A stretch of 64,000 nt of DNA from an uncultured Gammaproteobacteria bacterium. GTDB lineage: Bacteria > Patescibacteriota > Patescibacteriia > UBA9934. Made by a program: the position numbers and the translations under genes. Below the pieces are notes generated by a model. That model made no database searches and was not told the DNA's origin. It was given only the letters and a program-made list of their open reading frames with translations. The DNA is taken from the NCBI GenBank assembly GCA_964599455.1, contig CAZREA010000001.1, positions 353,829-417,828 on the forward strand. The letters run 5' to 3'. Within the stretch, counting starts at the first letter, position 1. Each line of letters begins with the position of its first letter. Of the stretch, positions 3,156 through 26,949 are shown piece after piece.

Positions 3156-3232
3156 TGGAGCCGATGGTCGGATTCGAACCGACGACCTGCTGTTTACAAA
3201 ACAGCTGCTCTAACCAACTGAGCTACATCGGC
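3156..3232 (-). tRNA. tRNA-Thr (anticodon UGU)
   Basis: Reverse complement reads GCCGATGTAGCTCAGTTGGTTAGAGCAGCTGTTTTGTAAACAGCAGGTCGTCGGTTCGAATCCGACCATCGGCTCCA. It folds as a canonical cloverleaf with a TTTGTAA anticodon loop. Confidence 0.85.
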
Positions 3233-8562: not shown

Positions 8563-8609
8563 TGGAGCCACAGACCAGGATTGAACTGGTGACCTCATCC
8601 TTACCATGG
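8563..8609 (-). pseudogene. 3' fragment of tRNA-Thr(GGU), anticodon loop through CCA (element-junction remnant)
   Basis: Reverse complement reads CCATGGTAAGGATGAGGTCACCAGTTCAATCCTGGTCTGTGGCTCCA. This matches the 3' exon of the intact tRNA at 21736..21776 with two compensatory T-stem changes. It diverges at the 11-bp core CCTTACCATGG. Confidence 0.6.
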
Positions 8610-8823
8610 GGGAGGTCGAGTTCAGAAATCCCAATTATCGGCTAACTGTAGTAAAGAAACCGTGAAAATGAGAAGCTTTGACAATCCGTCTACTCGACCA
8701 CTTCCACAATTAGTTACGACGTAAATTATGCCCCGTGTTTACTCCTTAGTCAAGTACAGATTTCAAGTAGGTACGGCACAAGAGCTACCACACAGAGAGC
8801 CGGCGGACGCTTCCTTTTCATGT

Positions 8824-9414
8824 TTAATTTTTCTTTAGAATTCTCCCAAACCAATAGGAATTCTCATATTTCTTTTCGGTCCGAAAACCAAGTCCCTGCA
8901 ATGCCTGATAAAAATCCTCTCGTCCGAACATTTCCTGATAGGGATGGTCTAAAAAGAGCTTCAGTCCCTTGCCCGGAAGGGATGAAAAGGTTTCGCGCGA
9001 AAGATCTTCGAGAATAAATGAACCTCCGGGTTTGAGTACTCGATTAATTTCCCGCAACGCTTCCCGCCAGTTCGGAATATGATGAAGGATGCCGAAGTCG
9101 AAAACAGCATCAAATGAACCTTCAACAAACGGCAGGTGTGCAACATCAGCTACGGAGAAGGAAACGTTATCGTCATCCACCCGACGCTTCGCACGAGCAA
9201 TCATGTTTTCATCAAGGTCAATTGCATACAGCTTTGCTGGCTCGAAATAGCGCCTGATAAGTTCCGTCCCCCGCCCTTGCCCGCATCCGATTTCAAGCAC
9301 CGTTTTTCCTTTTGGAAGGTCGGACATGCTTTTAAGCTTTCTGGCCTCGAACCCCTGAATAAACCCTCGAATCGGGTTATTCATAAGCCAAAACTCAACC
9401 TTGTTCATCAACAT
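8824..9414 (-). CDS. Class I SAM-dependent methyltransferase
   Basis: Contains VLEIGCGQGRGTE (motif I) and LKPGGSFIL (post-I). Confidence 0.65.
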   Translation of the reverse strand: MLMNKVEFWLMNNPIRGFIQGFEARKLKSMSDLPKGKTVLEIGCGQGRGTELIRRYFEPAKLYAIDLDENMIARAKRRVDDDNVSFSVADVAHLPFVEGSFDAVFDFGILHHIPNWREALREINRVLKPGGSFILEDLSRETFSSLPGKGLKLFLDHPYQEMFGREDFYQALQGLGFRTEKKYENSYWFGRILKKN

Positions 9415-9423
9415 ACCTTCGAG

Positions 9424-9822
9424 TTACTTAAATGCAATTTCAAACCGGTACATTCCCATTCCACACGTTCCTTCAAGGGTTCCCTGCGCTTGGGCTGCGG
9501 TAAGCGCAATAGTTTCTGTACCGGTGGGCTTGAGCATCGCCTGATAGCCGAGAGACGGGATAATTAGGGACGAGGAACAGTCATATGTTCCATTGGTTGC
9601 GACACGAAGCTCTGTAGGCACGCCCGCCTTGGCTTCAACAAACGACGGCGTATAGCCGCCTTTAGCGGCGAGATCGATGACCTGCGTTCCATTCTCGGTA
9701 CTAACCGACCCGTTATCCGTGGCAACCGTCGATGAGCCGTCATTCCTTAAGGCAAAGAAGAGTACCAATAATCCTACGGCAGCACCACAGAAAATTAACG
9801 CTGTTTTTGAATCCTTTTGCAT
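9424..9822 (-). CDS. Small secreted/membrane-anchored cupredoxin-like putative copper-binding protein
   Basis: N-terminal TM helix, then a beta-rich domain with a CSSS...CGMGMY Cys/Met cluster. It is the last gene of the csoR-copA operon. The fold assignment is from memory. Confidence 0.4.
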   Translation of the reverse strand: MQKDSKTALIFCGAAVGLLVLFFALRNDGSSTVATDNGSVSTENGTQVIDLAAKGGYTPSFVEAKAGVPTELRVATNGTYDCSSSLIIPSLGYQAMLKPTGTETIALTAAQAQGTLEGTCGMGMYRFEIAFK

Positions 9823-9837
9823 AAAAGAAGTTAGCTT

Positions 9838-10839
9838 TTAGAGAATGTTGAGTACATGAAGCGAGTTCCACACATTGAAAAGTGCCAACGCTACGACCAC
9901 AATACCCGCCGCTTTGAAGAACACGCCCTTCCACGGCTTGTTGGAGATTTCCAATGCCCCGAATGAAAGGAGCGCTAGCACAGGGAAAGTTCCAAGCGCA
10001 AATGCGAGCATGGTAAGCCCACCCGTCACAAAACTCCCCGTAGTGAGCGTGTAAACCTGCATGGATTGCGTGAAGCCGCATGGGAGGAAGAATGTGCCGA
10101 TCCCCACGAGGAACGGAGCCAGAACGTGTGAGGAACCGCTAGCGCGTACGGTATGCCGTGCAAAGACGCTGGGGAGCTTCGGTTGCAGCCGTTTGAGCGC
10201 CGGGAAGGTATCAAGCAGGTTGAGGCCCAAGATGAGCATAACGATTCCCACAGCTATTCCGAGCACCGCACTCCCCACAAGGCCGAGCTCGAATAACTTT
10301 CCTGCGCTTCCAATTGCGCCGCCAAGTACGAAGAATCCGCCGAGACGACCAACATGGAACATTGCCTGCGAGCGCCAATGTGTTTGGTTTTTGGCGGCGT
10401 TTGCTGAGAGCGACAGGACAAGTCCACCCACGACCGCCAGACACGTTGAGACGGAAGCGATGAGGCCGATCAGAACAGCCGTGCCGTAGGAGACGTTACC
10501 GGACGTAATCAGGTTAACGAGGCCGAGCTGCTGTAGCAGGAGGAAGCCGATAATAGCCGTCAGAGCTGCGGGTATGGCAATAAGAAACTCCCGATGGTTT
10601 TTTCTTTCTTTGGCGCGCTCCAGCGCAAGGCGGTAGCCGTTCCCTGAAACAAGTGTTGTCAGCTTTTCGGCGAGAACGGCAGGATCGCCGTCCAAGTCGC
10701 CAGAAACCGTCACGGCGCACATGGTGAGATCCGCCTTCACTTCTGCCACGCCTGCGTTGCCCTTGAGGGTTTCTTCAAGATAGAAGACGCAGGACGCGCA
10801 ATGCATCCCTTCTACAAAGAATGTGTGTTTACTTTGCAT
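9838..10839 (-). CDS. HMA-domain fused to DsbD_2/CcdA-like thiol-disulfide membrane transporter
   Basis: N-terminal GMHCASC heavy-metal-associated motif, then a 6-8 TM region with STCLAVVGG and FLPCGFT cysteine motifs typical of CcdA/DsbD_2. Confidence 0.55.
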
Positions 10840-13087
10840 ACGAGATTTTCTTCATCTTCAAACGAAGCGAGTTGAGTACGACCGACACGCTCGACATCGC
10901 CATCGCAAACCCTGCAAACACCGGGGAGAGCAGCCAACCCGTGAACGGGTAGAAGACACCCGCAGCAAGCGGGATGCCGATGACGTTGTAGATGAAGGCC
11001 GAGAAAAGGTTTTGACGAACCGTACGCATTGTTGCCTTGGAAAGCTCGATTGCCTGCGAGATTTTACGAATATCGCCCTTAAGAAGCGTCACGTCGCTTG
11101 TCTCGATGGAGACATCAGAACCGGTTGCCATCGCCATGCCAACATCGGCTTGAGCGAGGGCCGGTGCATCGTTTACGCCATCGCCTGCCATCGCCACAAC
11201 CTCCCCCTTGGCTTGTAACTCTTTGATAAGCGCCAGTTTTTCTTGAGGTAGAACTCCCGCAACGTAACGATCAATACGGAGTTCATCCGCAACGGCCTTT
11301 GCCGTTCCTTCATGGTCTCCGGTTGCCATCACGACCTTGATTCCCATGCCATGCAGCTTCCGCACGGCTTCCTTGGCTTCGGGCTTGATCTTGTCGGCAA
11401 CCGCGACAACGGCGAGGACCTCTTTGTCGGTTGCGAGCGCGATCAACGTTGCATTCTTGGATGACGTCTTGCCCTTTGGGAGTGTGAGACCAAGTGACTG
11501 CAAAAGGGCCGGGCCGCCAACGTAATAGGTCGTTCCATCAATGACGCCACGGATACCGCTTCCCGCGATGTTCTCGAACTCAACAACCTTTTTCTTTTTG
11601 GCGTCCTTCGCATAGGCGACGATTGCGTCCGCAAGCGGGTGCTCGGACTTTTCTTCCAAGCTCGCCATAATGGAAAGCGCATCTCCTTCGGGCAGATCTC
11701 CTATTACGGTGAAGTTTGCGACTTCCGGCTTACCCTTGGTGAGCGTTCCGGTCTTATCGATAACAAGCGTCGTGATCTTGTGCATCTTTTCAAGCACCTC
11801 GGCATTTTTAATGAGAATACCTAGCGTTGCACCCCGTCCCACACCGACCATGATCGCCGTTGGTGTTGCGAGGCCGAGCGCACAAGGACACGCAATAACA
11901 AGGACAGTCACGAATGAGGAAATGGCGAGCGGCACATTGCCCAGAAAGAGCCAAACGATAAGGGCAATGAAGGCGACGACCAACACGGCGGGAACAAAGA
12001 CACCGGAAATCTTATCTGCAAGACGCTGAATGGGTGCCTTTGACCCTTGGGCGTCGGCAACAAGAGCGATAATGTGCGCGAGGAGGGTTTCCGAGCCGAT
12101 CCCGGTCGCCTGCATCGTGAACGATCCGCTCGTGTTCATCGTTCCGGCAGAAACCTTGTCACCCGCCTTCTTTTCGACGGGGACAGGTTCGCCGGTAAGC
12201 AGGGATTCGTCGATAAATGACGCACCTTCCGCTACAACCCCGTCCACGGGGATTTTCATGCCCGGTTTTACCAACACAACGTCGCCCTTCTGTACCTGAT
12301 CAATCGAGACCGTTTGTTCTCTGCCCTCCCTAAGAACGGTTGCGGTTTTTACCTGTAGTCCCATGAGCTTTTTAATCGCGTCTCCGGTTTTTTCTTTTGC
12401 TCGGGCTTCAAAGTATTTACCAAGAGTGATCAAACCGATTACGACAATGGTCACGTCGTAGTAGGTCGCCGTAACATCGAGATACGGAGCGAGGACTTCC
12501 TCAAAAGCGGTGAGTGCAAAACTGTATAAAAACGCCGCCACCGTTCCAAGGCCGACGAGCGTATCCATGTCCGCAACACCACGGCGTAGGAACATCCAAA
12601 GACCGCGCAGGTACTGCGTCCCAGTCACGAAGAGAACATATGTCGCCATGATGGGGAGCAAGTGGTGGACGAACTCATAGACCGTTTCCGTCATCGCAGG
12701 GATGACATTAAATTTTGCGAGGATCTCCCAAACCATCATGGCTGCGGCAATAACAACCATGGGCATCGCGACGATAACCTTTTTTCGCAGAGCTCGCGCT
12801 TCTCCGTCAGAAACCGCCGCATGATCGTGCCCCTGCGTCTGATGCGATTCCGGCATTGCGTGAGCAGCGGGGTGTTCCTTAGCGTGGAGCTTGTAACCCA
12901 ATGGCTCAATTGTGCCAGAGAGCTTCTCAACATCCGTTTGGGCGGGATCGAGGGTGATTCGGGCTTCTTCCGTCGCCAAGTTCACCGAAACGTCTTTGAC
13001 GCCCTCTTGCGCCCCAAGTTTTTTCTCAATGCGGGACACGCACGAGGCGCAATGCATGCCTGAAATATGGGCAGTTATTTTCTCCAT
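10829..13087 (-). CDS. copA: Copper-translocating P1B-type ATPase
   Basis: HMA GMHCASC at the N-terminus, TM CPC motif ([12 protein letters not shown]), DKTGTLT phosphorylation site, [10 protein letters not shown] hinge. Confidence 0.9.
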
Positions 13088-13089
13088 AT

Positions 13090-13356
13090 TTATTTGCGCT
13101 TGAGTTTATAGACCTTAAGGATTTCCTCGACCGCCTTACTCTCCTTGCCGTTCTTGATTTGGTTGATGGCACAATGGCCCAAATGGCCTTCAAGCAAAAT
13201 ATCTTCAATGTTCGATAACCCCTGCTTCGCAGCAGAGGTCTGGGTGATGACATCGATACAATAGGTATCTTTTCCAATCATTTCCTGAAGACCACGAATC
13301 TGACCTTCGATGATTTTGAGCCGACGAAGTAAGCCCTTTTTGTCGCCATGTTTCAT
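13090..13356 (-). CDS. csoR: CsoR/RcnR-family copper-sensing transcriptional repressor
   Basis: About 88 aa with the C-x(n)-H-x3-C signature (YCIDV...HLGHCAI). The first ATG is at 13356; the track start at 13362 is a TTG. Confidence 0.7.
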
Positions 13357-13363
13357 ACGCAAA

Positions 13364-13389
13364 CATGATACCCCCTAGGGGGTATCATG
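13364..13389. promoter_or_regulatory. Perfect 26-bp palindrome CATGATACCCCCTAGGGGGTATCATG, candidate CsoR operator
   Basis: It lies immediately upstream of csoR-copA. The TACCC-N-GGGTA core resembles CsoR boxes described for Gram-positive copZA operators, as recalled. Confidence 0.5.
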
Positions 13390-13421
13390 TTAAGAGGCAA
13401 AGTGGATAGCGATTGTTCGGT

Positions 13422-14327
13422 TCAAAAAATAGAGTTAATGGGATTCTTTTCGATACTTGCATGAACCTGCTTTTGGTTGACTTGGGTGTAAATCATGGTG
13501 GTCGTTATTTCTTTATGACCAAGCGCCCGTTGAACGGCGAGAATATCATTGCTCCCCACATATGTTTGCGTGGCGAACGTATGACGGAACTTATGGGGTT
13601 TAATCCGTATACCCGCTCGCTCCCCAATGAGCCGAGTAAGGTGTTTGAGGCCGTTTACCGTGAACCGAGTTCGACCATGATAGGAGACCCAGAGCCAAAC
13701 TGTTTCTACTTTCCGCTTGTCTCGTTCACGCAGGTATCGCTCAAGAAGTTCACGAAGCCGAAAACACATCGGCACAGAACGTGCGGAGCGGCTTTTAGAT
13801 GTTTCGGCTCGGACGCGGATGACGCAGTTTTCCCAATCGAGATCGGTGAGCTTGAGGTTCAGGAGCTCCCCCTTCCGAAGCCCGGCCATAGCCATGACAC
13901 CGAATAAAGCTACATTACGGATACGTTCAAAGTCGGTTTTGGCGCACATGTTAACGTGGTACATGATCGTCTCCATTTCCGTTTGCGAGTAATACTCTGG
14001 CAAGTTCTTCATGAGGGGTGGAACTGGAATGGTATCGAGCGGATTCATGGCCAGATGCCCACGATTAACACACCATTTGAAGAAGGGCGCGAGGTTTTTA
14101 CGGTACGAAATGATTGTCGCTGCCTTCCAGCCACGTTCGCGTTCTCCGCGAATAAGAAACTGCCGCAAAATACCTTCCGTCAACTCGTCAGTTGTTTTGA
14201 CAGGAAATAATTTCAATAGCAGGCGAAAGCTCTCATGGTAGCTTTGCATCGTCGCATCCGAACGACGCGCGAGGGTTCCGTCCTCGCACTCGCGGATGAA
14301 CTGGTTGTGCGCCTGCTGTACATTCAC
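13422..14327 (-). CDS. Tyrosine recombinase/integrase (XerC/D-like)
   Basis: C-terminal catalytic region HKFRHTFAT...LGH...Y with R..HxxR..Y spacing. Confidence 0.8.
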   Translation of the reverse strand: MNVQQAHNQFIRECEDGTLARRSDATMQSYHESFRLLLKLFPVKTTDELTEGILRQFLIRGERERGWKAATIISYRKNLAPFFKWCVNRGHLAMNPLDTIPVPPLMKNLPEYYSQTEMETIMYHVNMCAKTDFERIRNVALFGVMAMAGLRKGELLNLKLTDLDWENCVIRVRAETSKSRSARSVPMCFRLRELLERYLRERDKRKVETVWLWVSYHGRTRFTVNGLKHLTRLIGERAGIRIKPHKFRHTFATQTYVGSNDILAVQRALGHKEITTTMIYTQVNQKQVHASIEKNPINSIF

Positions 14328-14331
14328 AAAA

Positions 14332-14670
14332 TTATTTCATTTCCCACCCGCGCTTTGCGGCAAACTCTTGGCTAATGTCATAAACCATCTGCCAGAGACG
14401 GTCGTCACCCATAAGCTCCACGATGAGCTCCTCCATTTCCGCATCTCCAATTGCAACTCCGTAGTAATCCCGGAAATGAAACCAGAAAGATTCGATAAAG
14501 TCGTACGAAAAGAATTGCTTGCGATCTGGGTGCTCCAAATACATTTGGCGATCTCGCTTTTCGGCTTTATCCGCTCTTGCAAGCATCTCTTCAAATTCTG
14601 GCTTCTCCATATGCTCAAGGGATGCCTGTACCTCCGCCTCCGTCGCCGACTGAATGTTCTCTTGGTTCAT
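14332..14670 (-). CDS. Hypothetical protein (between two recombinase genes)
   Basis: 112-aa acidic ORF, spaced 4 to 14 nt from its neighbours. Confidence 0.4.
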   Translation of the reverse strand: MNQENIQSATEAEVQASLEHMEKPEFEEMLARADKAEKRDRQMYLEHPDRKQFFSYDFIESFWFHFRDYYGVAIGDAEMEELIVELMGDDRLWQMVYDISQEFAAKRGWEMK

Positions 14671-14684
14671 ATCATTTGGGGTTA

Positions 14685-15845
14685 TTAGTTATTTGCTGAC
14701 ATTGCTTTCACGATTTGTGCGATGCGGGCTAAATCTTCCTCGCCAAGAACCGGCTTGGCCTGTAGTGATTCGGGGTCAATGCCGCTTAGCAATTCAATCT
14801 GTCGCTCCTCATCGATCTTGCCGTACCCGTACGAACCGAATGTCGTTGAAACGTGTTCGTGGCCGAGGTTTTGGCTGATTGCCTTTTTCTGCTCCTCGGT
14901 AAGCGGGATTTTCATGAACTCTTTGACGACAAGGTGACGGAATGTGTGAGGATGAAAGTACGGCACTCCGGCGGCCTTGAATCGCTTCTCAAAGATCTTT
15001 CGCGCTGAACTGCTCTTCTCCCAAAATTCTTGGTTAACCTCCCCCGAACTGTAGTAACTGACGTTTTCTTCACCTTGCTCGATTTTTGTTGCCGGGAAGA
15101 TGGGGTCGGTTGCCGCGTACCCTTTCTCGTTCACGAGATAGTCGTACCAACTGAGAAAGTATTCTTTTGGTTTGTCGTATTTGAGCGGGAAGAGGGCTGT
15201 GGTGATGCGTTTGGCGTACTTCGTTTTCACACCCAATGACGGGTCTTGATCGACAACGAGGTCGTCACGATCAAATGCACCGATGGGAAGACTGACGATT
15301 GCCGATATGCGAGCGCCTGTCAGGAGCGAGAAGGAGATCAGTGCCCTGTCTCGACGGTCAACCTCGGTTATTGGCTCGATGAACTCTATGACTGTCTGAA
15401 CCTGCTCAATCGTTGGAATTTTGCGCCGCCCGGACTGACGTGCTTGTCGGCTCTCCTTCTTTCCGAGATTCAGGAAGTCGATGTCGGTTATCTTGATGCT
15501 TTGCTTGTAGGCATCCTGCTCGGCAAGCCACCGGAAGAACGCCTTGAGCTTGCGTAGCGTGTGGTACTGGTATGACACGCTCAGCTTCTCATCCCCTGCG
15601 CCATCACGATCGGCGAGCCAACTTTTGAACTGCATGGCGTTCGCTTTGTTGAACGACCGGAAATCTTCATCGTGCGTAAATTCCTGCCAACGAAGGAGCG
15701 CCTTCTCGTAGGTCTCAATGCTGTTTTCGGCATACCCACCCGAGGCACGTTGATAATCGAAGAAGCGACGCTTCATGATCTCGTTTTGGTAACGAATTTC
15801 CTCGTGGGATTTGCCTTTGATTTTGTCTTCGATGAATTCACTCAT
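14685..15845 (-). CDS. Phage-type tyrosine integrase with N-terminal SAM-like/core-binding domain
   Basis: HPHTFRHLVVKE...LGHEHVSTTFGSYGY. 386 aa. Confidence 0.8.
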   Translation of the reverse strand: MSEFIEDKIKGKSHEEIRYQNEIMKRRFFDYQRASGGYAENSIETYEKALLRWQEFTHDEDFRSFNKANAMQFKSWLADRDGAGDEKLSVSYQYHTLRKLKAFFRWLAEQDAYKQSIKITDIDFLNLGKKESRQARQSGRRKIPTIEQVQTVIEFIEPITEVDRRDRALISFSLLTGARISAIVSLPIGAFDRDDLVVDQDPSLGVKTKYAKRITTALFPLKYDKPKEYFLSWYDYLVNEKGYAATDPIFPATKIEQGEENVSYYSSGEVNQEFWEKSSSARKIFEKRFKAAGVPYFHPHTFRHLVVKEFMKIPLTEEQKKAISQNLGHEHVSTTFGSYGYGKIDEERQIELLSGIDPESLQAKPVLGEEDLARIAQIVKAMSANN

Positions 15846-16291
15846 ATAGTCGTGTTGGGTGGTGATCGATTAATCCCTTTGGGAGATGTACGAAGGAATC
15901 GGCGCATGATCGTGTTGCAACGTCCGCAATGAGCGACATATTGCAATTGATCTTGGTTGTCTTTGCCGACTTTTTTGCCGGTCTTTTCTGTTCGTACTTC
16001 TCTGAGATCAACCCGTATCGCTTCGTGACACTTGAGGCAGTACAGCTCATCCGACTTCAGCTTCACTTCATGGCTCTTTCGCCGCTCACGCAGGAAGGCG
16101 ATCACCGTCTCGCCGTAAAAGAGCAATGGATTTGTATCTGACCTAATGGGCTGTAGACCTTCTTCAATCCATCGATAAACCGTCCCTCGGGTCGCCCCTA
16201 ATCGATCGGCGATTTCCTGTGGCGTATACGTTCGACGCTCCCTGATAATTCGGAGGTTATAGTTGCGCATAGTGGTAGAAGTTAGTTCCAC
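15842..16291 (-). CDS. Excisionase-like HTH DNA-binding protein with C-terminal zinc-ribbon
   Basis: HTH YTPQEIADRLGATRGTVYRWIEEG plus CLKCH...CGRC. The gene overlaps the integrase start by 4 nt. Confidence 0.5.
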   Translation of the reverse strand: MELTSTTMRNYNLRIIRERRTYTPQEIADRLGATRGTVYRWIEEGLQPIRSDTNPLLFYGETVIAFLRERRKSHEVKLKSDELYCLKCHEAIRVDLREVRTEKTGKKVGKDNQDQLQYVAHCGRCNTIMRRFLRTSPKGINRSPPNTTI

Positions 16292-16626
16292 CAGCTCTGC
16301 CCTAGCGCTCCCCGGATTCGACCTTTGACATCCCGAACCGTTGCCCAGAATCGTATCGGCTCCACGATGATCTCTCCCGAGAACAATTGACCCTGTATTT
16401 CCTCAAGCTCTTTAGAGGACACAAAAACTGCCACGGCACGGCGTGGGTTGATAGGATCAGATTCAAATGCCTTGATGGGGATCTCGCGGTAGGCGAGAAC
16501 ACAGATCAAAATAAACTCCGAGGTCTTGAATAGCTTCTCTTTGGATTTCATACAGTCATCTTTTTCATATTGCTTACCACCCCATTTCATCAAAAACGGA
16601 TCACTTAAAATAAGCAGAAACCCCAC
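16282..16626 (-). CDS. Hypothetical protein
   Basis: 114-aa ORF overlapping the next gene by 10 nt. No motif recognised. Confidence 0.35.
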   Translation of the reverse strand: MGFLLILSDPFLMKWGGKQYEKDDCMKSKEKLFKTSEFILICVLAYREIPIKAFESDPINPRRAVAVFVSSKELEEIQGQLFSGEIIVEPIRFWATVRDVKGRIRGALGQSWWN

Positions 16627-16697
16627 CTGCGGAATAACAAAAAAGAGCCGAATGTCCGGGCTCTTAAAAAGTTATCCCCGCTTTAAGTAGAGTTAAG

Positions 16698-17501
16698 TTA
16701 AGCAGTTTTATTTCGACGGGTTTGAAATGCTTTTTGAGTTAAGACTTCCACCGATACCTTGAAGACGACGAAATCGTAGTCCCTCCCAAGAATCTGGGTG
16801 AGCTCATGTTTTCCTTTCGTATAAAGAGGGCACCGACCGTTGGTATTGAAGTAATCCAAAGCTCCTCGAATATCTTGATGACGGAAGCGTTCGCCTTCAG
16901 CGATACGGATCAAGAGATCCCAATACTTTCCATATTTTACCGAAAATGCCCCTGCATAGTTGCCGTTCACAACCACAACTACCTCTCCCTTGCTCCGATC
17001 GGGCAAAAGACCAAGTTGTTGGATCGTTGAATTACAAATATCTTCGTCCTCGTTTTTTGTAGGTTCTCCATCATTTACGCGCCCATCGTTAAGATGTTCC
17101 GCAACCATGAGCGCGATATCCTCCTTGTCTTGCCACCCCATCCGTCGATTGGAAACAATGTACGGAAGGGTTTCTTGTTCTTCTAGGATGTTGGCATACA
17201 GGCCCCCGAATTGCGTGGGTTCGAGAACGGGCAACTGGGGAATTTTTAACACCGCAGTCGCTTGCTCGCTTACTCTCTGAAGTATTTTGTAAGAATCGAT
17301 GATTCCTGAAAAGTTTATCGCTTCAGATATTTGCGTTGCAGTTTTTTGAGCAACGGTCATCGCGCGAGCAATCTGATCAAACTGGCTTTTATGGGCATCG
17401 ACAAAATCCTGAATCACTTTCTGAGATTCAAGGTATGGCTGCATCATTTTTTTCATCTGGCTCTCAACGGCCGGGAGAGCATCTGAATCTAATTCGCTCA
17501 T
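16698..17501 (-). CDS. Hypothetical protein (element cargo)
   Basis: 267-aa ORF with no recognisable domain. Confidence 0.45.
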   Translation of the reverse strand: MSELDSDALPAVESQMKKMMQPYLESQKVIQDFVDAHKSQFDQIARAMTVAQKTATQISEAINFSGIIDSYKILQRVSEQATAVLKIPQLPVLEPTQFGGLYANILEEQETLPYIVSNRRMGWQDKEDIALMVAEHLNDGRVNDGEPTKNEDEDICNSTIQQLGLLPDRSKGEVVVVVNGNYAGAFSVKYGKYWDLLIRIAEGERFRHQDIRGALDYFNTNGRCPLYTKGKHELTQILGRDYDFVVFKVSVEVLTQKAFQTRRNKTA

Positions 17502-17639
17502 ATCGTCATCTTATCTGGGACAAAATTACCAGAAAAAACTGCACTTTTCAATTTGAAGCATGGATAAGCTTGGAGTTGCTTACCCTCAAAAAGTAAGGTA
17601 TTATCTCGGCACAACACCTAAACCCGACCAGTATGGTTG

Positions 17640-17803
17640 GGCATGGTTAAACACCTACACGACTGAGACGGTCTTCCGACTGGCACTTATTCGTGTAGGG
17701 CCCTATTCCGCAAGGATAGGGGGTTGTTGCCGAAAGGCGCAGCCGTCAGCTCGGGGGACCTTTTGAGTTTCCCGAAATCTAATTAACCCCTACACGAATA
17801 CCT
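17640..17803 (+). promoter_or_regulatory. Candidate structured 5' leader/cis-regulatory RNA with mutually exclusive pairings
   Basis: CCTACACGA (17654-17662) and CCCCTACACGA (17787-17797) can each pair with TCGTGTAGG (17691-17699). Between them are hairpins CCCTAT-UCCGCAAGG-ATAGGG and GCC-GAAA-GGC (GNRA). The second CCTACACGA ends 7 nt before the ATG at 17804. Confidence 0.3.
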
Positions 17804-18382
17804 ATGTCGCACGATACGACAGGGACCAAGAACTGGTTCGCCAGACACAAGATACTTAGCGCACTCGGAGGCCTCGTTCTCTTTTTCATAATTATTGGAG
17901 CGGTTTCAGGTGGCTCATCTGATACAAGCTCCTCAAGTGGCTCCTCTGGCTCCAATACCGGCCAACAGAACGCGCCTGCGGCTTACACGCTGAACGATCA
18001 AGTGACCGTGGGCGATGTAAAGTGGGTCGTGACCTCTGCTACGTCCAAAGCTTCGCTTGCGGGAGCGTTTGGCGGAACGGAAACCACCCAAGGAAAATTT
18101 GTGGTGATCAATGTGACTGTTGAAAATCTCGGGAAAGACATGAAAACCATGTCGAACCTAAAATTGGTCGATAGCCAAGGCCGGGAGTTTACGAGCTCTT
18201 CAAAGAGCTACAAGAACCTTGGAGCGGATCAGCTCTATATCCTACAAAACTTGAATCCCAATCTACCGTACACCTTCGCTGATGTGTACGAAGTGCCCGC
18301 CGACGCGGAGGGCTTCTCGGTAGTGGTCGGGGATCTGACCTTCTTCGGAAATAACGAAGCTAACATTGGCCTCGGTTTCTAA
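17804..18382 (+). CDS. Membrane-anchored DUF4352-like (Ig-like) domain protein
   Basis: N-terminal TM helix, Ser/Gly linker, then VGDVKWVV...GKFVVINVTVENLGKD...LKLVDSQGREF pattern resembling DUF4352. Confidence 0.45.
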   Translation: MSHDTTGTKNWFARHKILSALGGLVLFFIIIGAVSGGSSDTSSSSGSSGSNTGQQNAPAAYTLNDQVTVGDVKWVVTSATSKASLAGAFGGTETTQGKFVVINVTVENLGKDMKTMSNLKLVDSQGREFTSSSKSYKNLGADQLYILQNLNPNLPYTFADVYEVPADAEGFSVVVGDLTFFGNNEANIGLGF

Positions 18383-18400
18383 ACCGAAGTGCTCATATAG

Positions 18401-18428
18401 AAAACCTCCCAAAAAGGGAGGTTTTCTT
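18401..18428 (+). terminator. Rho-independent terminator
   Basis: AACCTCCC-AAAAA-GGGAGGTT followed by TTCTTG. Confidence 0.55.
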
Positions 18429-18460
18429 GCTGTACGAATGGCCCTCTGATTGGTAAGCTC

Positions 18461-20788
18461 ATGTCAATTATGATGACAAATGCCTCTCTGAAATACAGGC
18501 CCGTCAGGATCGGTATGCTCGTTAACGAGGGCTCGATTGACGAACTTATTGCCGCCGCAAGTTGGAACAGTATTTTGTGGGGCGGTCTTTACAACCCAGT
18601 CATTCCCTGTGGAGCTAATCAGGAATTAACGCAGAGTTTGATGGAGCTATTTTCTGTTGACGTTCTCTATGCTGTAGGGAAATCAAAAGTGATCACGAAG
18701 GTAATGAACGACCACCCTTTTTTGAGAGAGCAGAGGCATATAGAGGGTCTATTTCATGAAGAAACAGCTCCACGCACAAGAGAGCGTGTTTTAGCTCCTA
18801 CATACCTCAGTTTAAAAGACATCGCTGACTACTTCTGGTACGAAGAGATGCGGCATAAGGATTCCTCCTACAAGAGCGACTTCATCCATCATACATGGGA
18901 ACAGAATGACGATCTGAATGGGTTGATGTCGATGATGTACGGGCGCATACCAAGTGCAGGTTCAGTACCCTTCAAATACTCATTCGACAATATCTTTTTA
19001 AACGGCTTACGAGCTGATTCTTCGACGGTCAAGATTGGCGACCCAATACCTGAACAAGACAAATTTTCGATCATTCAAGCCACGCAAGCACTCCTTCGAG
19101 AACACGGGGATGGTTTCTATCGAAATGGAGGGGGTGTTTATATTGGCTCCCATACCAGTTTTAACGACCTCCTGACTTTTTGGAACTTGCGAGCTTCAGG
19201 TATTGACGTTGCATTCTTTTCGACTGACGCCACAGATAGGACGTTAGGTGCCGCAAAAACACAACTCGATCGTGTTCGTAAAAGGTCGGAGGATACAGAA
19301 ATGCCCTTTGCGGCGTACCCCACCGTCTACCATCAGATTGACGATAAGGATTCAATTGATGCTCATATAAAGCTTCTGTTTTCCGAGGAGGAGAAAAGGG
19401 TGATTCATCACGTCTCGGATCATTCTTGGAACGGTCATAACATTCGGCCCGCGACTTGTAGCTTTTCTTGGGAACAAACAAGTGGAAGTGCAAGCTTGAC
19501 GAATGAGCAGCCAAGCGTGCGTTTTCAGTTACCTCCTATGGACTTCTTACGAGGTCGCGAGGATCTTGATAGCTCAACACTTGCGGTTGATGTTGATGTC
19601 TATTTTGAAGGTGATTACGAGAAACATACCCTCAAGCCCCCATATCTTCGGGGCCTAGATGAATTTTATAGAAGGGGCATACATTTTTCGCCCTTTGGTC
19701 TGCGGGTGCATGGAGGGGGTATTTCATTGCTCGTTGAGACAAACGATCATGATATCCGCCTAAACCCACTTTCAAAAATTGAAACTGTCCACAAAATTTT
19801 TGATCTTGTGGGGCTGCGATCGAAACCAAGCCAGCCGGGTATTGTTGCGCAAAAAATCATTGATCATTTCGGTGGCCTTGAAAAGTTAAGACCCCTTAAG
19901 TTTGATGGGGTGAGAAAATTACTCGAATCCTTAGAGCCGGAAGATACAGTCACGAGGGGACGGGCGACACAAACAATCCATGAATCTAATTTGACGAGAC
20001 ACAGGTTCCTTTCTTCTGCATCAGAGGGAATCAATGCCTCAGAAGTTTTTAACGGGTTGCTCAAGCAACAAGTGTTTAGGCCGGGCTTAGAGCTTACCTG
20101 CGCGAGCTGTACGCTCACCAGCTGGTTTTCACTCGCCGAGTTGGATGACGAGTGGATTTGCAGATATTGCGCCGCAAAGGAACTTACAAGCATTCAATTA
20201 GGGAACCGGGGTGACTGGAAGTTTAGGAAGAATGGTCTCTTTGCGAGGCAAAACAAGCAGGATGGCGCAATCCCCGTCATCTTGACGTTGTTGACCCTGA
20301 ATAGGAGATTCCACGACGGGAAGTTGCTCTGGCTGACGAACACTAAACTCGACGGTGATGGGGTGGACTGCGAAAGCGATTTTGTTGCTATCGTTAAAGA
20401 TAGTAGATCGAGCAAACTAGAAATTTGTATCGGGGAGTGTAAGAGTGGAGGCGGTGAAATCAATCAAGAGGATTGCGACAAGCTAACCGCCGTCGCAGAC
20501 ACGATCAAGAAAAACGATCAGCTTGATTGTTGCATTCTCTTTGCAAAGACGGCTGAAGATTTTACGGATACTGAAAAATCCTTGTTTAAGAGTTTGATTG
20601 AAAAAGGTTACCGAATTGTTCTATTCACCAATAGGGAGCTGGAGCCCTACGAACCTTACTGGACTGACGGAAGTGGAGAAAATCTCCCACAGAAATACGC
20701 CCACTCGCTGGAGGACTTCTCGGCCAATTCACGAGCCCGGTACTTATCCGATCCTGAAGCTAGCCCACAAAATTCAACGGGTGCTTAG
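18461..20788 (+). CDS. Large uncharacterised protein with internal CxxC...CxxC zinc-ribbon and C-terminal PD-(D/E)xK-like nuclease motif
   Basis: 775 aa. CASCTLTSWFSLAELDDEWICRYCAA (zinc ribbon). C-terminal DGVDCESDFVAIVKD...LEICIGECKSGGGE gives a D...ExK pattern. No NTPase motif seen. The 3' end overlaps the convergent integrase gene by 29 nt. Confidence 0.55.
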   Translation: MSIMMTNASLKYRPVRIGMLVNEGSIDELIAAASWNSILWGGLYNPVIPCGANQELTQSLMELFSVDVLYAVGKSKVITKVMNDHPFLREQRHIEGLFHEETAPRTRERVLAPTYLSLKDIADYFWYEEMRHKDSSYKSDFIHHTWEQNDDLNGLMSMMYGRIPSAGSVPFKYSFDNIFLNGLRADSSTVKIGDPIPEQDKFSIIQATQALLREHGDGFYRNGGGVYIGSHTSFNDLLTFWNLRASGIDVAFFSTDATDRTLGAAKTQLDRVRKRSEDTEMPFAAYPTVYHQIDDKDSIDAHIKLLFSEEEKRVIHHVSDHSWNGHNIRPATCSFSWEQTSGSASLTNEQPSVRFQLPPMDFLRGREDLDSSTLAVDVDVYFEGDYEKHTLKPPYLRGLDEFYRRGIHFSPFGLRVHGGGISLLVETNDHDIRLNPLSKIETVHKIFDLVGLRSKPSQPGIVAQKIIDHFGGLEKLRPLKFDGVRKLLESLEPEDTVTRGRATQTIHESNLTRHRFLSSASEGINASEVFNGLLKQQVFRPGLELTCASCTLTSWFSLAELDDEWICRYCAAKELTSIQLGNRGDWKFRKNGLFARQNKQDGAIPVILTLLTLNRRFHDGKLLWLTNTKLDGDGVDCESDFVAIVKDSRSSKLEICIGECKSGGGEINQEDCDKLTAVADTIKKNDQLDCCILFAKTAEDFTDTEKSLFKSLIEKGYRIVLFTNRELEPYEPYWTDGSGENLPQKYAHSLEDFSANSRARYLSDPEASPQNSTGA

Positions 20789-21713
20789 TCATCTGGCCAC
20801 GCAAATGCTCAACGGAGGCCGACAGGTAGATTGTGGTGGTTTTAATGTCGTTATGCCCCAGCATCTTGGAGAGGGAGTAGATATCACAGCCGCCTTCGAT
20901 CATTAGCGTGGCGAAGGTATGTCGGAGCATGTGGATGTAGAAATCTGTCCCAGAGGCCTCAATAATGCGTTCAACGAGACGTTTAAGGCCGGAGTCGGTG
21001 AATCTCCCATCCCGATTCAAAGAAACGAAAAAGTACATGGTCACTTTGTGAAGCCGCTCTCTTTCGGAGAGGTACTTTTGAAGTATGGCAATGAGCTGAA
21101 ACGGCATAGGGACCACGCGATCTTTATTGCCCTTGCCTTGCCGAATACAGATCACCATATTCGTCAGATCCACGTCGGTCATCTTCAGCGTGAGCAATTC
21201 GGTCTTACGAAGGCCACAGTACAGAAACATGGCAAACATGGCGTGGTTGCGGTAGCGAAGAAAAGCATTCGGATACGGCAGACATGCAGCGGTTTCGATA
21301 AGCGTCAGCGCCTCCTGTTTGGTAAGGCGCTTCGGGAGGTTTTTGTCTTGTCGCGGTTTCTCGATTTGTTCAAAGGGATTGTCGATGACAAAGTTTCGCT
21401 CCTTCGCCCACTTGAAGAAGACGTTTAGTCGCTTGTGGTGGGTAATGAAGGTGCTTGGCGTCCACTTTTTTGTTGACCTCCCCCAATAGAAGAATTTTTG
21501 AGCTACCAAAAAAGACACCTCATCAATGCGCTCTACTTCAGGACATGCCTGCAAGAACGTTCTGAGTGTCTCTCGATAACTCTTTACCGTCGTAGGACGG
21601 TAATTCCTGATTGTTTCCTGATACTGACAAAAACTCTCATGGAGCTCTGCGATCTTCATATTCATCTCATTTAGAGCGGAATATGGATCGAGTATCCACT
21701 TCAGGTGGTTCAA
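20760..21713 (-). CDS. Tyrosine integrase adjacent to tRNA-Thr attachment site
   Basis: HMLRHTFATLMIEGG...LGHNDIKTTTIYL. Confidence 0.8.
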   Translation of the reverse strand: MNHLKWILDPYSALNEMNMKIAELHESFCQYQETIRNYRPTTVKSYRETLRTFLQACPEVERIDEVSFLVAQKFFYWGRSTKKWTPSTFITHHKRLNVFFKWAKERNFVIDNPFEQIEKPRQDKNLPKRLTKQEALTLIETAACLPYPNAFLRYRNHAMFAMFLYCGLRKTELLTLKMTDVDLTNMVICIRQGKGNKDRVVPMPFQLIAILQKYLSERERLHKVTMYFFVSLNRDGRFTDSGLKRLVERIIEASGTDFYIHMLRHTFATLMIEGGCDIYSLSKMLGHNDIKTTTIYLSASVEHLRGQMTKHPLNFVG

Positions 21714-21735
21714 TACGAGATTAAGCCATCTGAAG

Positions 21736-22014
21736 TGGAGCCACAGACCGGGATTGAACCGGTGACCTCATCCTTCGTTTACACCTCTGCTTTCTAGGGC
21801 ATATCAGAGGGCTAGACTGTATCTTGAGCTTTCTCTTGCGAGGGAAGCTCCCCTTGTCAGTCGTTCGGGCGTACGCTTTCGCGTTGACGCCACGGTCTTG
21901 ACCTTGCCGGGTCTTTAACCGTAATTCGGGATTCAATCCTGCATTTCTGCGAGGAGGGGCAGGAGACATTACGTCCCACCATGGATGCGCTCTACCAACT
22001 GAGCTACTGCGGCA
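21736..22014 (-). tRNA. tRNA-Thr (anticodon GGU) interrupted by a 202-nt putative group I intron after anticodon position 36
   Basis: Exons (reverse complement) GCCGCAGTAGCTCAGTTGGTAGAGCGCATCCATGGT | AAGGATGAGGTCACCGGTTCAATCCCGGTCTGTGGCTCCA join into a canonical 76-nt cloverleaf with anticodon loop AUGGUAA. The spliced sequence equals the contiguous sequence seen in the fragments at 8563..8609 and 22130..22169. Confidence 0.6.
21777..21978 (-). ncRNA. Putative group I intron in tRNA-Thr anticodon loop
   Basis: The 5' exon ends in U and the intron ends in G. There are R-like (GAACGACUGACAAGG) and S-like (CAAGAUACAGUCUAGCC) elements with a 5-bp P7 (GACUG/CAGUC). A P8-like hairpin (GAGCUU...AAGCUC) and a P9-like hairpin (CCUCUG...CAGAGG) are also present. 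No ORF inside. Confidence 0.45.
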
Positions 22015-22129
22015 TGAATTGTTTGGCTCCGACGGCCACTTCCACGGGGGATGTGGTCGTCTGATTTTTGTTTTCTTGATTTCTTCTTTTACATTAGCGT
22101 GAAACCGCGTTTCTAGGGTAGACCGCCTC

Positions 22130-22169
22130 CTTACCATGGATGCGCTCTACCAACTGAGCTACTGCGGCG
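22130..22169 (-). pseudogene. 5' fragment of tRNA-Thr(GGU), positions 1 to ~41, ending at the 11-bp core (element right junction)
   Basis: Identical over 36 nt to the 5' exon of the intact gene. Sequence upstream of the core is unrelated to tRNA. Confidence 0.55.
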
Positions 22170-22177
22170 AATAAAGC

Positions 22178-23128
22178 GTGCAAATAGTAACAAACGCTCC
22201 TACGAGCGTCAACGAATCTTTTATGACAGGGAAAAAATCTTGGCTACTTGGACTCATCGTTCCGTTGATTTCACTGGCTTTTCTTTTGGGGATAGTCTAC
22301 GGAAATATCTCTCCATTAACACCAGAAGAAGCAGAAAAAGATGAACGTCCCGCCTACAGCAGCGGCTGGTATCCTGCTTCGTTCTATGCAGGCGCTTATC
22401 AAAAAGCAAAAGGTGAAAAGGTGCCCGAAGCGACATCTGGCCTTGTGGCACATCACCTCTTGGTTGCCAACAAGATTGCCGAAGTCTTTGAAAATCTTGC
22501 AAGCGATGAAGTAAAAACCGTCGTCCTTGTCGGCCCCAACCACTTCAAACGCGGCGTATCGCTTGCACAGGTATCAAAAAGAGAATGGAACACACCTTTC
22601 GGAGATGTCGTCGCTGATGATGAGGCAATTGATCGACTTCTCTCTGCCCTCCCCTTTTTACATCATGAAGAAACAGCCTATAAAAGCGAGCACGGTATCT
22701 ACGGCTTAATGCCCTTCATCGCAACTTCCTTCCCCAATGCCAAAGTAGTACCGATCATCTTACAAGAAGATTTATCCGCCGAACGTGCCTGGGAAATAGG
22801 ACAAACGATCGCGCAAACCCTTCCGGACGCAGTATTATTTGCCAGCGTTGATATGACGCATAATCGTGATGCTGAGTTTACCGCATACAATGATGCGCGC
22901 GTCCTCGATCTTTTACACGATGCCGGCATGTGCGACGGGACGCTCTGCATAACAGATCTTGTTATCGATTCAAATACCTCACTGCGTGTGCTCTTTGGTT
23001 TTAACGCCGAACGCGGTACAACACAATGGCAAATGACTCATCACGGCAGTTCTTTGGAAATGGGAGCGACCAAAAATTGGCTTGAAAATACCAGTCACAT
23101 TCTCGGCTATTTCTTGCCAGCGAAGTAA
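22178..23128 (+). CDS. MEMO1-family (AmmeMemoRadiSam system protein B-like) protein
   Basis: HHLLVANKIAE...VVLVGPNHF...ASVDMTHN pattern recalls the Memo-like fold. Alternative start MTGKK at 22223. Confidence 0.4.
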   Translation: MQIVTNAPTSVNESFMTGKKSWLLGLIVPLISLAFLLGIVYGNISPLTPEEAEKDERPAYSSGWYPASFYAGAYQKAKGEKVPEATSGLVAHHLLVANKIAEVFENLASDEVKTVVLVGPNHFKRGVSLAQVSKREWNTPFGDVVADDEAIDRLLSALPFLHHEETAYKSEHGIYGLMPFIATSFPNAKVVPIILQEDLSAERAWEIGQTIAQTLPDAVLFASVDMTHNRDAEFTAYNDARVLDLLHDAGMCDGTLCITDLVIDSNTSLRVLFGFNAERGTTQWQMTHHGSSLEMGATKNWLENTSHILGYFLPAK

Positions 23129-25220: not shown

Positions 25221-25231
25221 TGGTGAATGGA

Positions 25232-25367
25232 TAGACCCTGAGCGCATGCGAAGGGCCTAGAAAAATTCCTTAGCCAAATACGAGAATGAAAAATCCTGAA
25301 AGAATTCTTTCAGGATTTTTGATATCCATCTTATGAATCTGCTAGGCCCTTCCTAACGTCAGGGTCT
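25232..25367. repeat. MITE/REP-like palindromic element with imperfect terminal inverted repeats and a central perfect hairpin
   Basis: Left end TAGACCCTGAGCGCATGCGAAGGGCCTAG pairs with right end CTAGGCCCTTCCTAACGTCAGGGTCTA. Centre AAAATCCTGAAAGAATTCTTTCAGGATTTT (25290-25319) is a bidirectional terminator-like hairpin. A related copy is at 26950..27030. Confidence 0.5.
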
Positions 25368-26160: not shown

Positions 26161-26162
26161 AG

Positions 26163-26936
26163 TTATTCCTGGAAGGTTAGCACATCAGTAGCGGCTCGTA
26201 CAATGTCTTGAAAAGCATGAATATGCAAACTTGCCGAGCCAACCAACACACCATCAATTTCCGGTTCACGCAAAAACATGTAGGCATTTTGCTCATCAAC
26301 CGAACCACCATACAAAACCTGCACCTTTTCTTTTGTACTGGAGAAGAGATCTTCTGCCTCTTCTTTTATCGCTTGCACCATCAGCAAAACATCAGCAATG
26401 GGTGGAGTCTGTTTTGTACCAATAGCCCACAAGGGTTCATAGGCGAACATGGGCACAAAACCTTTCGGCACTTCGGCAGCCGCACATATTCTACGCATAG
26501 TGCGTCGGACTGCTTCAACTGCTGTTCCGGCCTCATACTCCCCACGCGTTTCTCCAACACAAAGAACAGGCTTGATATGACTTCCCGCAATCGCTTGCAA
26601 TTTCTTACGCAATAATTCTTCAGATTCGCCAAATATTATTCTTCGTTCGGAATGGCCAAGTAAAACCGTGGCGCATCCGATATCCTCAAGATGCCCAACG
26701 CCAACAGCGCCGGTATACGCACCATACCGATCAGGTCCCACATCTTGGGCGCCCAACGTCAGACGAGTTCTTGCTAATACTTTATGCACTTCATACAACG
26801 CAGTAAACGCAGGACAAAGAATAATGTTCGGGATCACATCTTTTCCCTGCACGGTCATAACCGCAGCCTTTGCTAAAGCTACCGACTCGCGGATGCCTAA
26901 ATGCATTTTCCAATTGGCAATGATGGTTTTTTGCAT
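26163..26936 (-). CDS. tpiA: Triose-phosphate isomerase
   Basis: NWKMH, AYEPLWAIGT, GGS motifs. Confidence 0.9.
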   Translation of the reverse strand: MQKTIIANWKMHLGIRESVALAKAAVMTVQGKDVIPNIILCPAFTALYEVHKVLARTRLTLGAQDVGPDRYGAYTGAVGVGHLEDIGCATVLLGHSERRIIFGESEELLRKKLQAIAGSHIKPVLCVGETRGEYEAGTAVEAVRRTMRRICAAAEVPKGFVPMFAYEPLWAIGTKQTPPIADVLLMVQAIKEEAEDLFSSTKEKVQVLYGGSVDEQNAYMFLREPEIDGVLVGSASLHIHAFQDIVRAATDVLTFQE

Positions 26937-26949
26937 AGGAAGGGGAAAG

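Follow-up and report, generated by a model that had tools for sequence, protein, structure and literature searches.

We analysed a 64,000-nucleotide (nt) stretch of contig CAZREA010000001.1 (positions 353,829 to 417,828; hereafter the window), whose minus strand from 22013 to 21736 holds a tRNA-Thr(GGU) gene that is interrupted between tRNA positions 36 and 37 (36/37) by an insert of 202 nt (21977..21776). The insert has the fold and the conservation of a group I intron, from which we infer an RNA that would be catalytic and would splice. Taking all the evidence together, we consider it very probable that the insert is one of the Thr(GGU) 36/37 group I introns of Patescibacteria and that the gene which it splits is cargo of an integrase island of ~13.5 kb.

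The split gene was seen only when introns were allowed for. ARAGORN with the -i option called tRNA-Thr(ggt) at c[21736,22013] with a 202-nt intron at 37, and neither default ARAGORN nor the Rfam tRNA model made a call at this gene. An initial annotation of this DNA, made from the sequence alone, had described exons that assemble into a perfect cloverleaf, and it was right: the joined exons form a standard cloverleaf, and ARAGORN calls the spliced sequence tRNA-Thr(ggt). The annotation also had the length of the intron, 202 nt, but placed it one base off, at 21777..21978 rather than 21776..21977, and likewise started the gene at 22014 rather than 22013. The supporting signs that it listed are all there, namely a 5' exon whose last base is U, an insert whose last base is G (21776), the GACUG (21862..21858) and CAGUC (21819..21815) strands, and the P8 and P9 hairpins. 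Its central proposal of a group I intron after position 36 is borne out by covariation over 110 homologues, by an independent RNAalifold consensus and by a family model that matches an intron recognized by the Rfam group I model (RF00028).

A group I fold was drawn manually for the window sequence and tested on a MAFFT alignment that was blind to structure (A1, 110 distinct homologues). In A1, 88.4% of the pair cells held standard pairs, compared with 31-50% when the 3' partners were slid by 1-3 columns; double-sided changes were found in 825 cells, compared with 123-392 in the slid versions; the covariation score was 0.373, compared with at most 0.173 in the slid controls; and none of 500 shuffles reached any of the observed measures. 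In a second alignment (A3, 44 sequences), the whole structure was 92.5% paired. RNAalifold, run on A3 independently of the drawn fold, returned P1, P2, P4, P5, P6, P7, P8, and P9, and in its consensus the anticodon stem of the exons pairs across the intron and covaries.

In P1, the exon GGU pairs with GCC through U(-1).G18, G(-2)-C19, and G(-3)-C20, which are invariant in 110/110 sequences, and the four intron-side pairs covary (for example, GU 50/AU 37/GC 10/UA 10 and GC 61/AU 38). P2 is misaligned in A1; in A3 it is 84% paired, and 6/6 of its pairs have changed on both sides. The P3 pseudoknot is 100% paired, with C-G replaced by U-A in 4 sequences. P4 is invariant, and P5, P6, P8, and P9 covary heavily, including 6/6 pairs of P8 (in both A1 and A3) and 5-6 pairs of P9, which is 92-93% paired; P6a is not present in L003, one of the contigs found through the integrase described below. 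P7 is an invariant helix of 6 bp (A114-U164, bulged C115, and G116-C163) which, at the level of sequence, contains the putative guanosine site. J8/7 (AAGAUA) and the CGAAC that precedes P7 are also invariant, J4/5 is rich in A, and J3/4 is GAA. Overall, CGAACGACUGACAAGG and AAGAUACAGUCUA are invariant in the 110 sequences.

Two alternative pairings were tried and dropped. An alternative P3 (C19-U23 with A124-G128) would use G18-C20, which are the invariant partners in P1, and the pairing of 48-50 with 125-127 covaries; an alternative 3-bp P1 through G11-C13 was dropped on the same two grounds. Minimum free energy folding of the single sequence gave z = -2.5 and missed P1 and P3, and it is uninformative here because the ribozyme is pseudoknotted.

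The initial annotation had proposed a search with RF00028 as a check and had counted the lack of a significant covariance-model match among the things that would refute the intron. This search gave no match, but it is misleading in this case, since RF00028 is blind to the family, and reading its silence as a refutation would wrongly reject the intron. In the same scan, RF00028 was found in other split tRNAs of the metagenome-assembled genomes (MAGs) that carry the family (L047, L083, and L098; 54.6-60.6 bits), so that the miss is specific to the Thr family. We made a covariance model from A3 (R1; 209 positions, 46 pairs). R1 matched the window intron with 186.3 bits (E 4e-60), which is its sole match in the window and the third-best of all its matches. 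It also made full-length matches, whose E-values are all rough, to the RF00028-positive tRNA intron of L083 (20 bits, E 1.6e-4), to three tRNA-Tyr introns (25.7-28.4 bits, E 2.5e-7 to 2e-6), to a tRNA-Ser intron (E 1.6e-3), and to an intron in a phage protein-coding gene (L210:5918-6127, IMG/VR UViG_3300015613_000310; 93 bits, E 1e-30). In this phage intron the 5' exon also ends in GGT, and RF00028 gives only 13.9 bits. These cross-matches tie the Thr family to accepted group I introns.

Across the 4227 Rfam families, the sole signal on the insert at E<=10 was a sub-threshold match to BjrC68 (RF02353) at 21859-21930 (-), which is exactly P4-P6 (18.7 bits against a gathering score of 39, E 0.01-0.04). 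This match is probably due to chance, or BjrC68 may share the shape of the P4-P6 domain; the literature on BjrC68 added nothing to explain it. An archaeal intron of the bulge-helix-bulge (BHB) type was considered and rejected, as the junction is fixed at 36/37 and the neighbors (L33, GlyRS, and CCA-encoding tRNAs) are bacterial. BHB-type introns are usually found at 37/38.

The window intron is one more member of a published family. Nakagawa et al. 2026 described tRNA-Thr(GGU) 36/37 introns in three complete Patescibacteria genomes (PMC13011429), for which the term "divergent group I introns" comes from Castelle et al. 2018, as cited in that paper. RF00028 cannot detect these introns and the tFind model gpI_bact_tRNA.cm can (PMC13011429; Williams 2020, bioRxiv 10.1101/2020.01.27.920355), and the published tree groups them, on a long branch, with the phylum's IA-type tRNA introns (PMC13011429). 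The window intron shares with them the tRNA, the insertion site, the phylum, a similar length, and the blindness of RF00028, and even the tendency of ARAGORN to call Arg(GCG) 34/35 for Thr(GGU) 36/37 (also seen in Table 1 of PMC13011429). What differs is that here the split gene is island cargo beside a disrupted host copy, and that our survey extends the family from three genomes to at least 108 species-level genomes. The remark in the initial annotation that tRNA-Thr(GGU) would be an unusual host is thus contradicted both by the published family and by this survey.

For the survey, we scanned one genome per species for the R/S-type signature GACTRACAAGG N15-45 AAGATAYAGTC. It matched at least 120 genome contigs, nearly all of them MAGs of Patescibacteria (the Candidate Phyla Radiation, CPR), and ARAGORN -i placed a split tRNA over almost every match. 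After correction of an ambiguity in the ARAGORN boundaries, which yields Arg(GCG) 34/35, His(GUG), or Pro(GGG) where Thr(GGU) 36/37 applies, 108 of the ~115 loci with an ARAGORN intron call were tRNA-Thr(GGU) split at 36/37, with U at -1, a terminal G, and a 3' exon that starts with AA; the terminal G, and with it the GGU/...G/AA solution, is partly by construction, since the boundary was chosen so. The inserts in these 108 loci are 158-266 nt long (median, 193 nt). Four contigs found through homologues of the island integrase (L001-L004) carry the same split tRNA-Thr(GGU), with inserts of 200-201 nt in which several helices have changed in a compensatory way. Of the 108 genome loci, about 100 have neither an integrase nor a remnant of a second copy, from which it follows that most Thr(GGU) introns reside in ordinary chromosomal genes, and a crude neighbor-joining tree of the introns did not group the island-borne copies. 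The GlyRS of the window genome has a 100% identical counterpart on a 481-kb NCBI contig; its named relatives are Paceibacterota, Parcubacteria, Portnoybacteria, and Gracilibacteria, and by these the host is patescibacterial. This genome or a close one is also present in the DNA runs SRR16481182 and SRR16481186/7.

Many of these MAGs carry more than one such interruption. A second or third intron-split tRNA (called Tyr, Asp, Ser, Met, or Leu by ARAGORN) was present in L013, L022, L047, L050, L063, L075, L083, L098, L116, L122, and L123, and only three of these additional tRNA introns reached the gathering score of RF00028. Partial duplications were also seen: in L118:7350-8000 the whole 40-nt 3' exon is repeated, 100% identical, 544 nt downstream, around a small open reading frame (ORF) and without the ATGGT core, and in L024:1320-1480 a tandem partial copy of the intron 3' end and the 3' exon lies beside the Thr(GGU) intron.

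The genomic context of the window copy points to an integrase. The 5' half of the gene occurs twice: 155 nt from the 5' exon (22013..21978) lies another copy (22168..22133) that matches it at 36/36 positions, continues with AAGGA, and then diverges. The 3' half has a counterpart at 8602..8563, at a distance of 13.5 kb and with the same orientation; CCATGGT stands before this counterpart, and a hairpin and a T-run come after it. This host 3' half is 38/40 (95%) identical to the 3' exon of the island gene, and the two mismatched positions compensate for each other as a pair in the T stem. When 22168..22133 was joined to 8602..8563, ARAGORN called a clean tRNA-Thr(ggt); neither attL nor attR alone gave an ARAGORN tRNA call, and the Rfam tRNA model scored 16.9 bits at attL, below its 29-bit cut-off. 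The window contains exactly two occurrences of a 12-nt core, CCATGGTAAGGA, at 22128-22139 and 8598-8609, both in the same orientation (0.15 occurrences expected with one mismatch allowed). The 7-nt overlap, ATGGTAA, corresponds to the anticodon loop, with an imperfect inverted arm on either side. From the two junctions we reconstructed attB as GAGCGCATCC, ATGGTAA, and GGATGAGGTC in that order (empty-site sequence, GCGCATCCATGGTAAGGATGAGGTCACCAG) and attP as GACCTCCCCC, ATGGTAA, and GGAGGCGGTC (attP-junction sequence, GACCTCCCCCATGGTAAGGAGGCGGTC).

The initial annotation had noticed remnants of an intron-less copy and took them for intron-plus and intron-minus alleles that met at one locus. The second 5' half is indeed there, and copies with and without the intron have indeed come together, but as the outcome of a different event: the repeats indicate that the remnant is the attL of a 13.5-kb integrase island whose insertion split the intron-less tRNA-Thr(GGU) of the host at its anticodon loop, with the 3' half left 13.5 kb away. 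A local origin of the duplicated 5' half, by tandem duplication, intron homing, or recombination between intron-plus and intron-minus alleles, would suit the perfect identity and close spacing of the two 5' halves, and the duplications in L024 and L118 show other partial exon copies beside such introns. We nevertheless regard a local origin as very unlikely, because the host 3' half, 13.5 kb off, shares both the orientation and the 12-nt core, the two halves rebuild a tRNA, the integrase adjoins the island tRNA, and the point of junction is precisely the 7-nt anticodon loop with its imperfect inverted arms. Furthermore, the layout recurs with different flanks and arms in at least 15 loci, two more loci (L054 and L139) have unrecombined attP-like sites, and an intron of 202 nt is too short for a homing endonuclease gene; the sole ORF listed across it (21721..22137, 138 amino acids) runs over the exons and beyond and was judged spurious.

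The integrase that adjoins the island tRNA has 1835 homologues, of which the closest named ones are from Uhrbacteria and Parcubacteria, with close ones also in marine metagenomes. Homologues of 297-302 amino acids suggest that its true start is M17 or M19 (21665 or 21659). In many loci, relatives of this integrase lie 17-50 nt downstream of a tRNA-Thr(GGU). In addition to the split tRNA gene, the island carries three tyrosine recombinases, a P-type heavy-metal ATPase, a DsbD_2/HMA protein, a methyltransferase, a DUF4352 protein, an unknown protein of 775 amino acids, and a LOOT RNA.

The design of the island is recurrent. Its layout consists of a host 5' half, ATGGTAA, an island arm, a spacer of ~105-135 nt, the intron-split tRNA-Thr(GGU), 17-50 nt, and the integrase, and we found it with different host flanks and arms in 13 further intron-bearing loci: L001 and L003, six from the genome collection (L025, L041, L046, L070, L078, and L105), and five from metagenomes (L127, L128, L134, L136, and L142). 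The same layout with an intron-less island tRNA was found in L005 and in L144/L145. In two other cases, the module of split tRNA-Thr(GGU) and integrase stands behind an unrecombined attP-like site, which is a perfect 7-nt inverted repeat around ATGGTAA: L139:329-603, and L054:5196-5450, the latter in an isolate of the Bacteroidota, Niastella populi (NZ_LWBP01000002.1). The Niastella case suggests that the module has been transferred outside Patescibacteria. A search of the full-text literature, together with PMC13011429 and Williams 2020, returned no account of an island combined with an intron in this way, only one unrelated mycobacteriophage paper; integrase is mentioned 0 times in PMC13011429 and Williams 2020, and "island" once, in passing, in the latter. 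A tRNA-breaking island that brings its own replacement gene is, apparently, undescribed.

The host flank of one intron-less locus is related to that of the window: the order Peptidase_M16 - TIM - TPR is syntenic between 25366-28334 in the window and L005:1-2223, and the TIM gene of the window (26163..26936) was itself assigned from this synteny. Related hosts may thus have been targeted at the same tRNA-Thr(GGU) locus by islands with and without the intron.

Several observations weigh against our reading of intron and island. RF00028 has no match at its gathering score in the whole window, or at E<=10 in searches of 901 nt and 216 nt. P2 can form in the window copy only with a bulged C or with two mismatches, P3 has just 3 bp, and P10 is at best 1-4 bp, for which the window copy offers, by eye, A+1-U17 or a shifted AGGA/UCCU. 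The homologues were selected by a pattern that lies in P7, J7/3, and J8/7, which makes the invariance there partly circular, and the calibration of R1 was shortened. The published splicing assays, which demonstrated self-splicing in vitro, concern only the Asn and Asp 35/36 introns (PMC13011429). As for the island, it has three integrases, any of which may have made the junctions, and it may be composite; and neither an empty attB (GCGCATCCATGGTAAGGATGAGGTCACCAG) nor an excised attP circle (GACCTCCCCCATGGTAAGGAGGCGGTC) was found for it. A search for an island-free relative through the GlyRS neighbors led to L207 and L208, in which similarity ends after the TPR gene and no tRNA is present, and the exact L33 protein of the window matched no contig.

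Two further explanations draw on these points. The first is that the insert is some other structured element that resembles group I, such as a protein-dependent intron, a new ribozyme, or a nonintronic insertion, which would suit the lack of any Rfam match at E<=10 apart from BjrC68, the weak P10, and the short P3. We consider this highly improbable, since the group I hallmarks occur in canonical order and with covariation (the U.G pair of P1, the P3/P7 pseudoknot, P4-P6, the bulged P7 with its G-C pair, J8/7 AAGAUA, and the terminal G), R1 cross-matches an RF00028-positive intron, and the published phylogeny places the Thr introns with IA-type tRNA introns (PMC13011429). The second is that the insert is a former group I intron that has lost the ability to splice, so that the island copy is a tRNA pseudogene and its function is provided from elsewhere or by the tRNA-Thr(UGU) that is present at 3156..3232. 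The imperfect P2 of the window copy could be a sign of such decay, splicing of the Thr family is something that we infer, and with only 64 kb of the genome in view another tRNA-Thr(GGU) is possible. This explanation is improbable as well, albeit a little less so: all columns that are invariant among the 110 homologues are preserved in the window copy, which has the third-best R1 score (186 bits), both exons are intact, the T-stem difference from the host copy is compensatory, and, with the host copy destroyed, the island copy should be under selection.

If the insert is a functional group I intron, the precursor tRNA would be processed as follows. The exon GGU and intron nucleotides 1-4 would pair with the guide UCCUGCC to form P1, with U.G at the splice site, and a free guanosine at the G116-C163 pair of P7 would attack after U36. 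G202 would then occupy the guanosine site, and ligation of the exons would yield a normal tRNA-Thr(GGU) as the supply of the cell; it is probably the anticodon stem, and not a true P10, that would hold the exons together. The island, for its part, recombined with the host's intron-less tRNA-Thr(GGU) inside ATGGTAA, leaving the halves at attL and attR, and supplies a complete replacement gene 107 nt downstream of attL, next to the integrase. A consensus scan of the spacer gave no other promoter match, and for this reason we propose that the island tRNA is read through from the host promoter-like site at 22212..22184, although the scan that found this site was not above chance.

The intron could also protect the replacement gene from the integrase of the island that carries it. 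Without an intron, an island copy with an anticodon arm of the host type would be a perfect attB beside attP; the intron splits the overlap into ATGGT and AA and shifts the right arm by 202 bp, which would render the replacement gene immune. In line with this, the anticodon stem is identical to that of the host remnant in 12 of 14 intron-bearing island copies, with a one-base difference in the other two, and 2/2 independent intron-less island copies, a small sample, differ at two of the five stem positions. The idea of self-immunity rests on this comparison of 14 intron-bearing with 2 independent intron-less copies. Recombination between the identical 36-nt 5' halves, which are 155 nt apart, would delete attL and fix an intron-plus gene at the native locus. 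We raise only tentatively, and think somewhat unlikely, the wider idea that intron and island act as a unit, in which the integrase targets the intact anticodon loop (ATGGTAA) of intron-less tRNA-Thr(GGU) genes, destroys these genes, and installs an immune intron-bearing copy, with attL deleted later ("homing by proxy").

The proposed process can be set beside known systems. As in homing by an intron-encoded endonuclease, the intron-less allele is broken and the cell relies on the intron-plus copy; in this case, however, the allele is broken by an integrase encoded outside the intron, it is split rather than converted, and the intron has no room for an endonuclease. Integration sites in tRNA genes were reportedly classified by Williams in 2002, with a class for the anticodon loop. 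With the islands and prophages that use the anticodon loop, the window island shares an integrase next to the tRNA, a 7-nt overlap that equals the loop, arms that mimic the anticodon stem, and direct repeats at both ends. In the classical arrangement, attP carries the 3' part of the tRNA and the junction rebuilds the tRNA, whereas here the junction is dead and a complete, usually intron-bearing tRNA gene is supplied 107 nt away.

Among the introns themselves, tRNA-Ile(CAU) of Azoarcus hosts a classical tRNA group I intron. The classical bacterial tRNA introns (IC3) otherwise include those of tRNA-Leu(UAA) at 34/35 and tRNA-fMet at 33/34 in cyanobacteria and that of tRNA-Arg(CCU) at 36/37 (PMC13011429). 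They resemble the Thr family in their place in the anticodon loop after U, a length of ~200-250 nt, the self-splicing type, the usual lack of a homing endonuclease gene, and the pairing of the exon anticodon stem across the intron (for which compare the title of Zaug et al. 1993, cited in PMC13011429). In contrast to the Thr family, which is undetected by RF00028 and groups with IA-type introns in the published tree, they are detected by RF00028 and classed as IC, and they belong to another lineage. The IA-type introns of Patescibacteria tRNA-Asn/Asp (35/36) and tRNA-Tyr share the phylum, size, and type of location with the Thr family, and R1 matches Tyr introns in the same MAGs. These introns differ from the Thr family in insertion site and sequence, and self-splicing in vitro has been demonstrated for those of Asn and Asp (PMC13011429).

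To the published family these data add a secondary structure backed by covariation, a range of more than 100 species-level genomes, and an occurrence in a phage gene. As standard tools miss the intron, tRNA-based estimates of completeness are deflated for CPR genomes. The more useful part is the island context, a recurrent design in which the target tRNA gene is broken and a full replacement, usually split by an intron, is brought along. If self-immunity is real, it would give a bacterial group I intron a concrete selective function; if islands seed intron-plus alleles, this would be a testable route of spread that needs no homing endonuclease; and homing by proxy, if true, could explain how an intron without an endonuclease came to be in many Patescibacteria and occasionally in other phyla, as in Niastella populi. 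Coordinates are collected in Table 1.

Table 1. Features of the split tRNA-Thr(GGU) gene, its intron and the surrounding island. Positions are window coordinates or, where marked, intron nucleotides.
Feature	Position	Strand	Basis
Split tRNA-Thr(GGU): 5' exon, intron, 3' exon with encoded CCA	21736..22013	-	ARAGORN -i
5' exon, tRNA positions 1-36, ending in ..CCAUGGU, GCCGCAGTAGCTCAGTTGGTAGAGCGCATCCATGGT	22013..21978	-	sequence
Intron, 202 nt, GGGACG to GTAAACG; nucleotide i = window coordinate 21978-i	21977..21776	-	family model R1, covariation, RNAalifold
3' exon, tRNA positions 37-76, starting with AAGGAUG, AAGGATGAGGTCACCGGTTCAATCCCGGTCTGTGGCTCCA	21775..21736	-	sequence
P1: exon -3..-1 and intron 1-4 with 14-20 (UCCUGCC), U(-1).G18 at the 5' splice site	21958..21980	-	A1
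P2 hairpin, 24-29 with 36-41, loop AGAAAU	21937..21955	-	A3, RNAalifold
P3 5' strand (21930..21928), J3/4 GAA, P4-P5-P6 domain with P6a GAAA hairpin	21868..21930	-	A1, A3
P3, 3' strand GGG 21853..21851	intron 48-50 with 125-127	-	drawn fold
P4	intron 56-61 with 81-86	-	drawn fold
P5	intron 65-68 with 75-78	-	drawn fold
P6, plus GAAA-capped P6a	intron 87-91 with 106-110	-	drawn fold
P7	intron A114, bulged C115, 116-120 with 159-164	-	drawn fold
P8, with GCAA-capped extension	intron 128-133 with 147-152	-	drawn fold
P9	intron 168-173 with 189-194 (21810..21805 with 21789..21784)	-	drawn fold
Core: P7 5' strand A114, bulged C115, GACUG; J7/3 ACAA; P3 3' strand; P8 GCAA loop; J8/7 AAGAUA; P7 3' strand CAGUCU	21814..21864	-	
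P9 hairpin, 3' tail UGUAAAC, terminal G	21776..21810	-	A1, A3
Omega G (G202)	21776	-	drawn fold
Island spacer, 107 nt, between attL and island tRNA gene	22014..22120	-	similar length in related loci
attL: host 5' half 22168..22133, overlap ATGGTAA 22137..22131, island arm GGAGGCGGTC 22130..22121	22121..22168	-	repeat D5
attR: island arm GACCTCCCCC 8617..8608, overlap ATGGTAA 8607..8601, host 3' half 8602..8563	8563..8617	-	repeat D3
Integrated island, ~13.5 kb, between attR and attL	8608..22130		Pfam, Rfam, att repeats
Tyrosine integrase ORF, 22 nt downstream of island tRNA	20760..21713	-	Pfam Phage_integrase 1.8e-34
Sigma-70-like promoter match TTGACG-17-TACTAT upstream of host remnant	22184..22212	-	consensus scan; count not above shuffles

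Some minor observations concern the island and its surroundings. The genes of the three tyrosine recombinases are at 13422-14327 (-), 14685-15845 (-), and 20760-21713 (-), compared with two copies of the att core in the window. PADLOC gave no matches for the five island proteins on which it was run, and the arm pattern of attP and attL had no match in IMG/VR. The LOOT RNA (Rfam RF03000) is at 17615-17744 (+), between an ORF for an unknown protein of 267 amino acids and the DUF4352 gene, and scores 52.3 bits against a gathering score of 46.4. Outside the island, a direct repeat of 56 nt (84% identical; 25229-25284 and 26944-26999) occupies two intergenic regions that flank the TPR and TIM genes, beside the L33 gene, and could represent a shared regulatory or terminator element.

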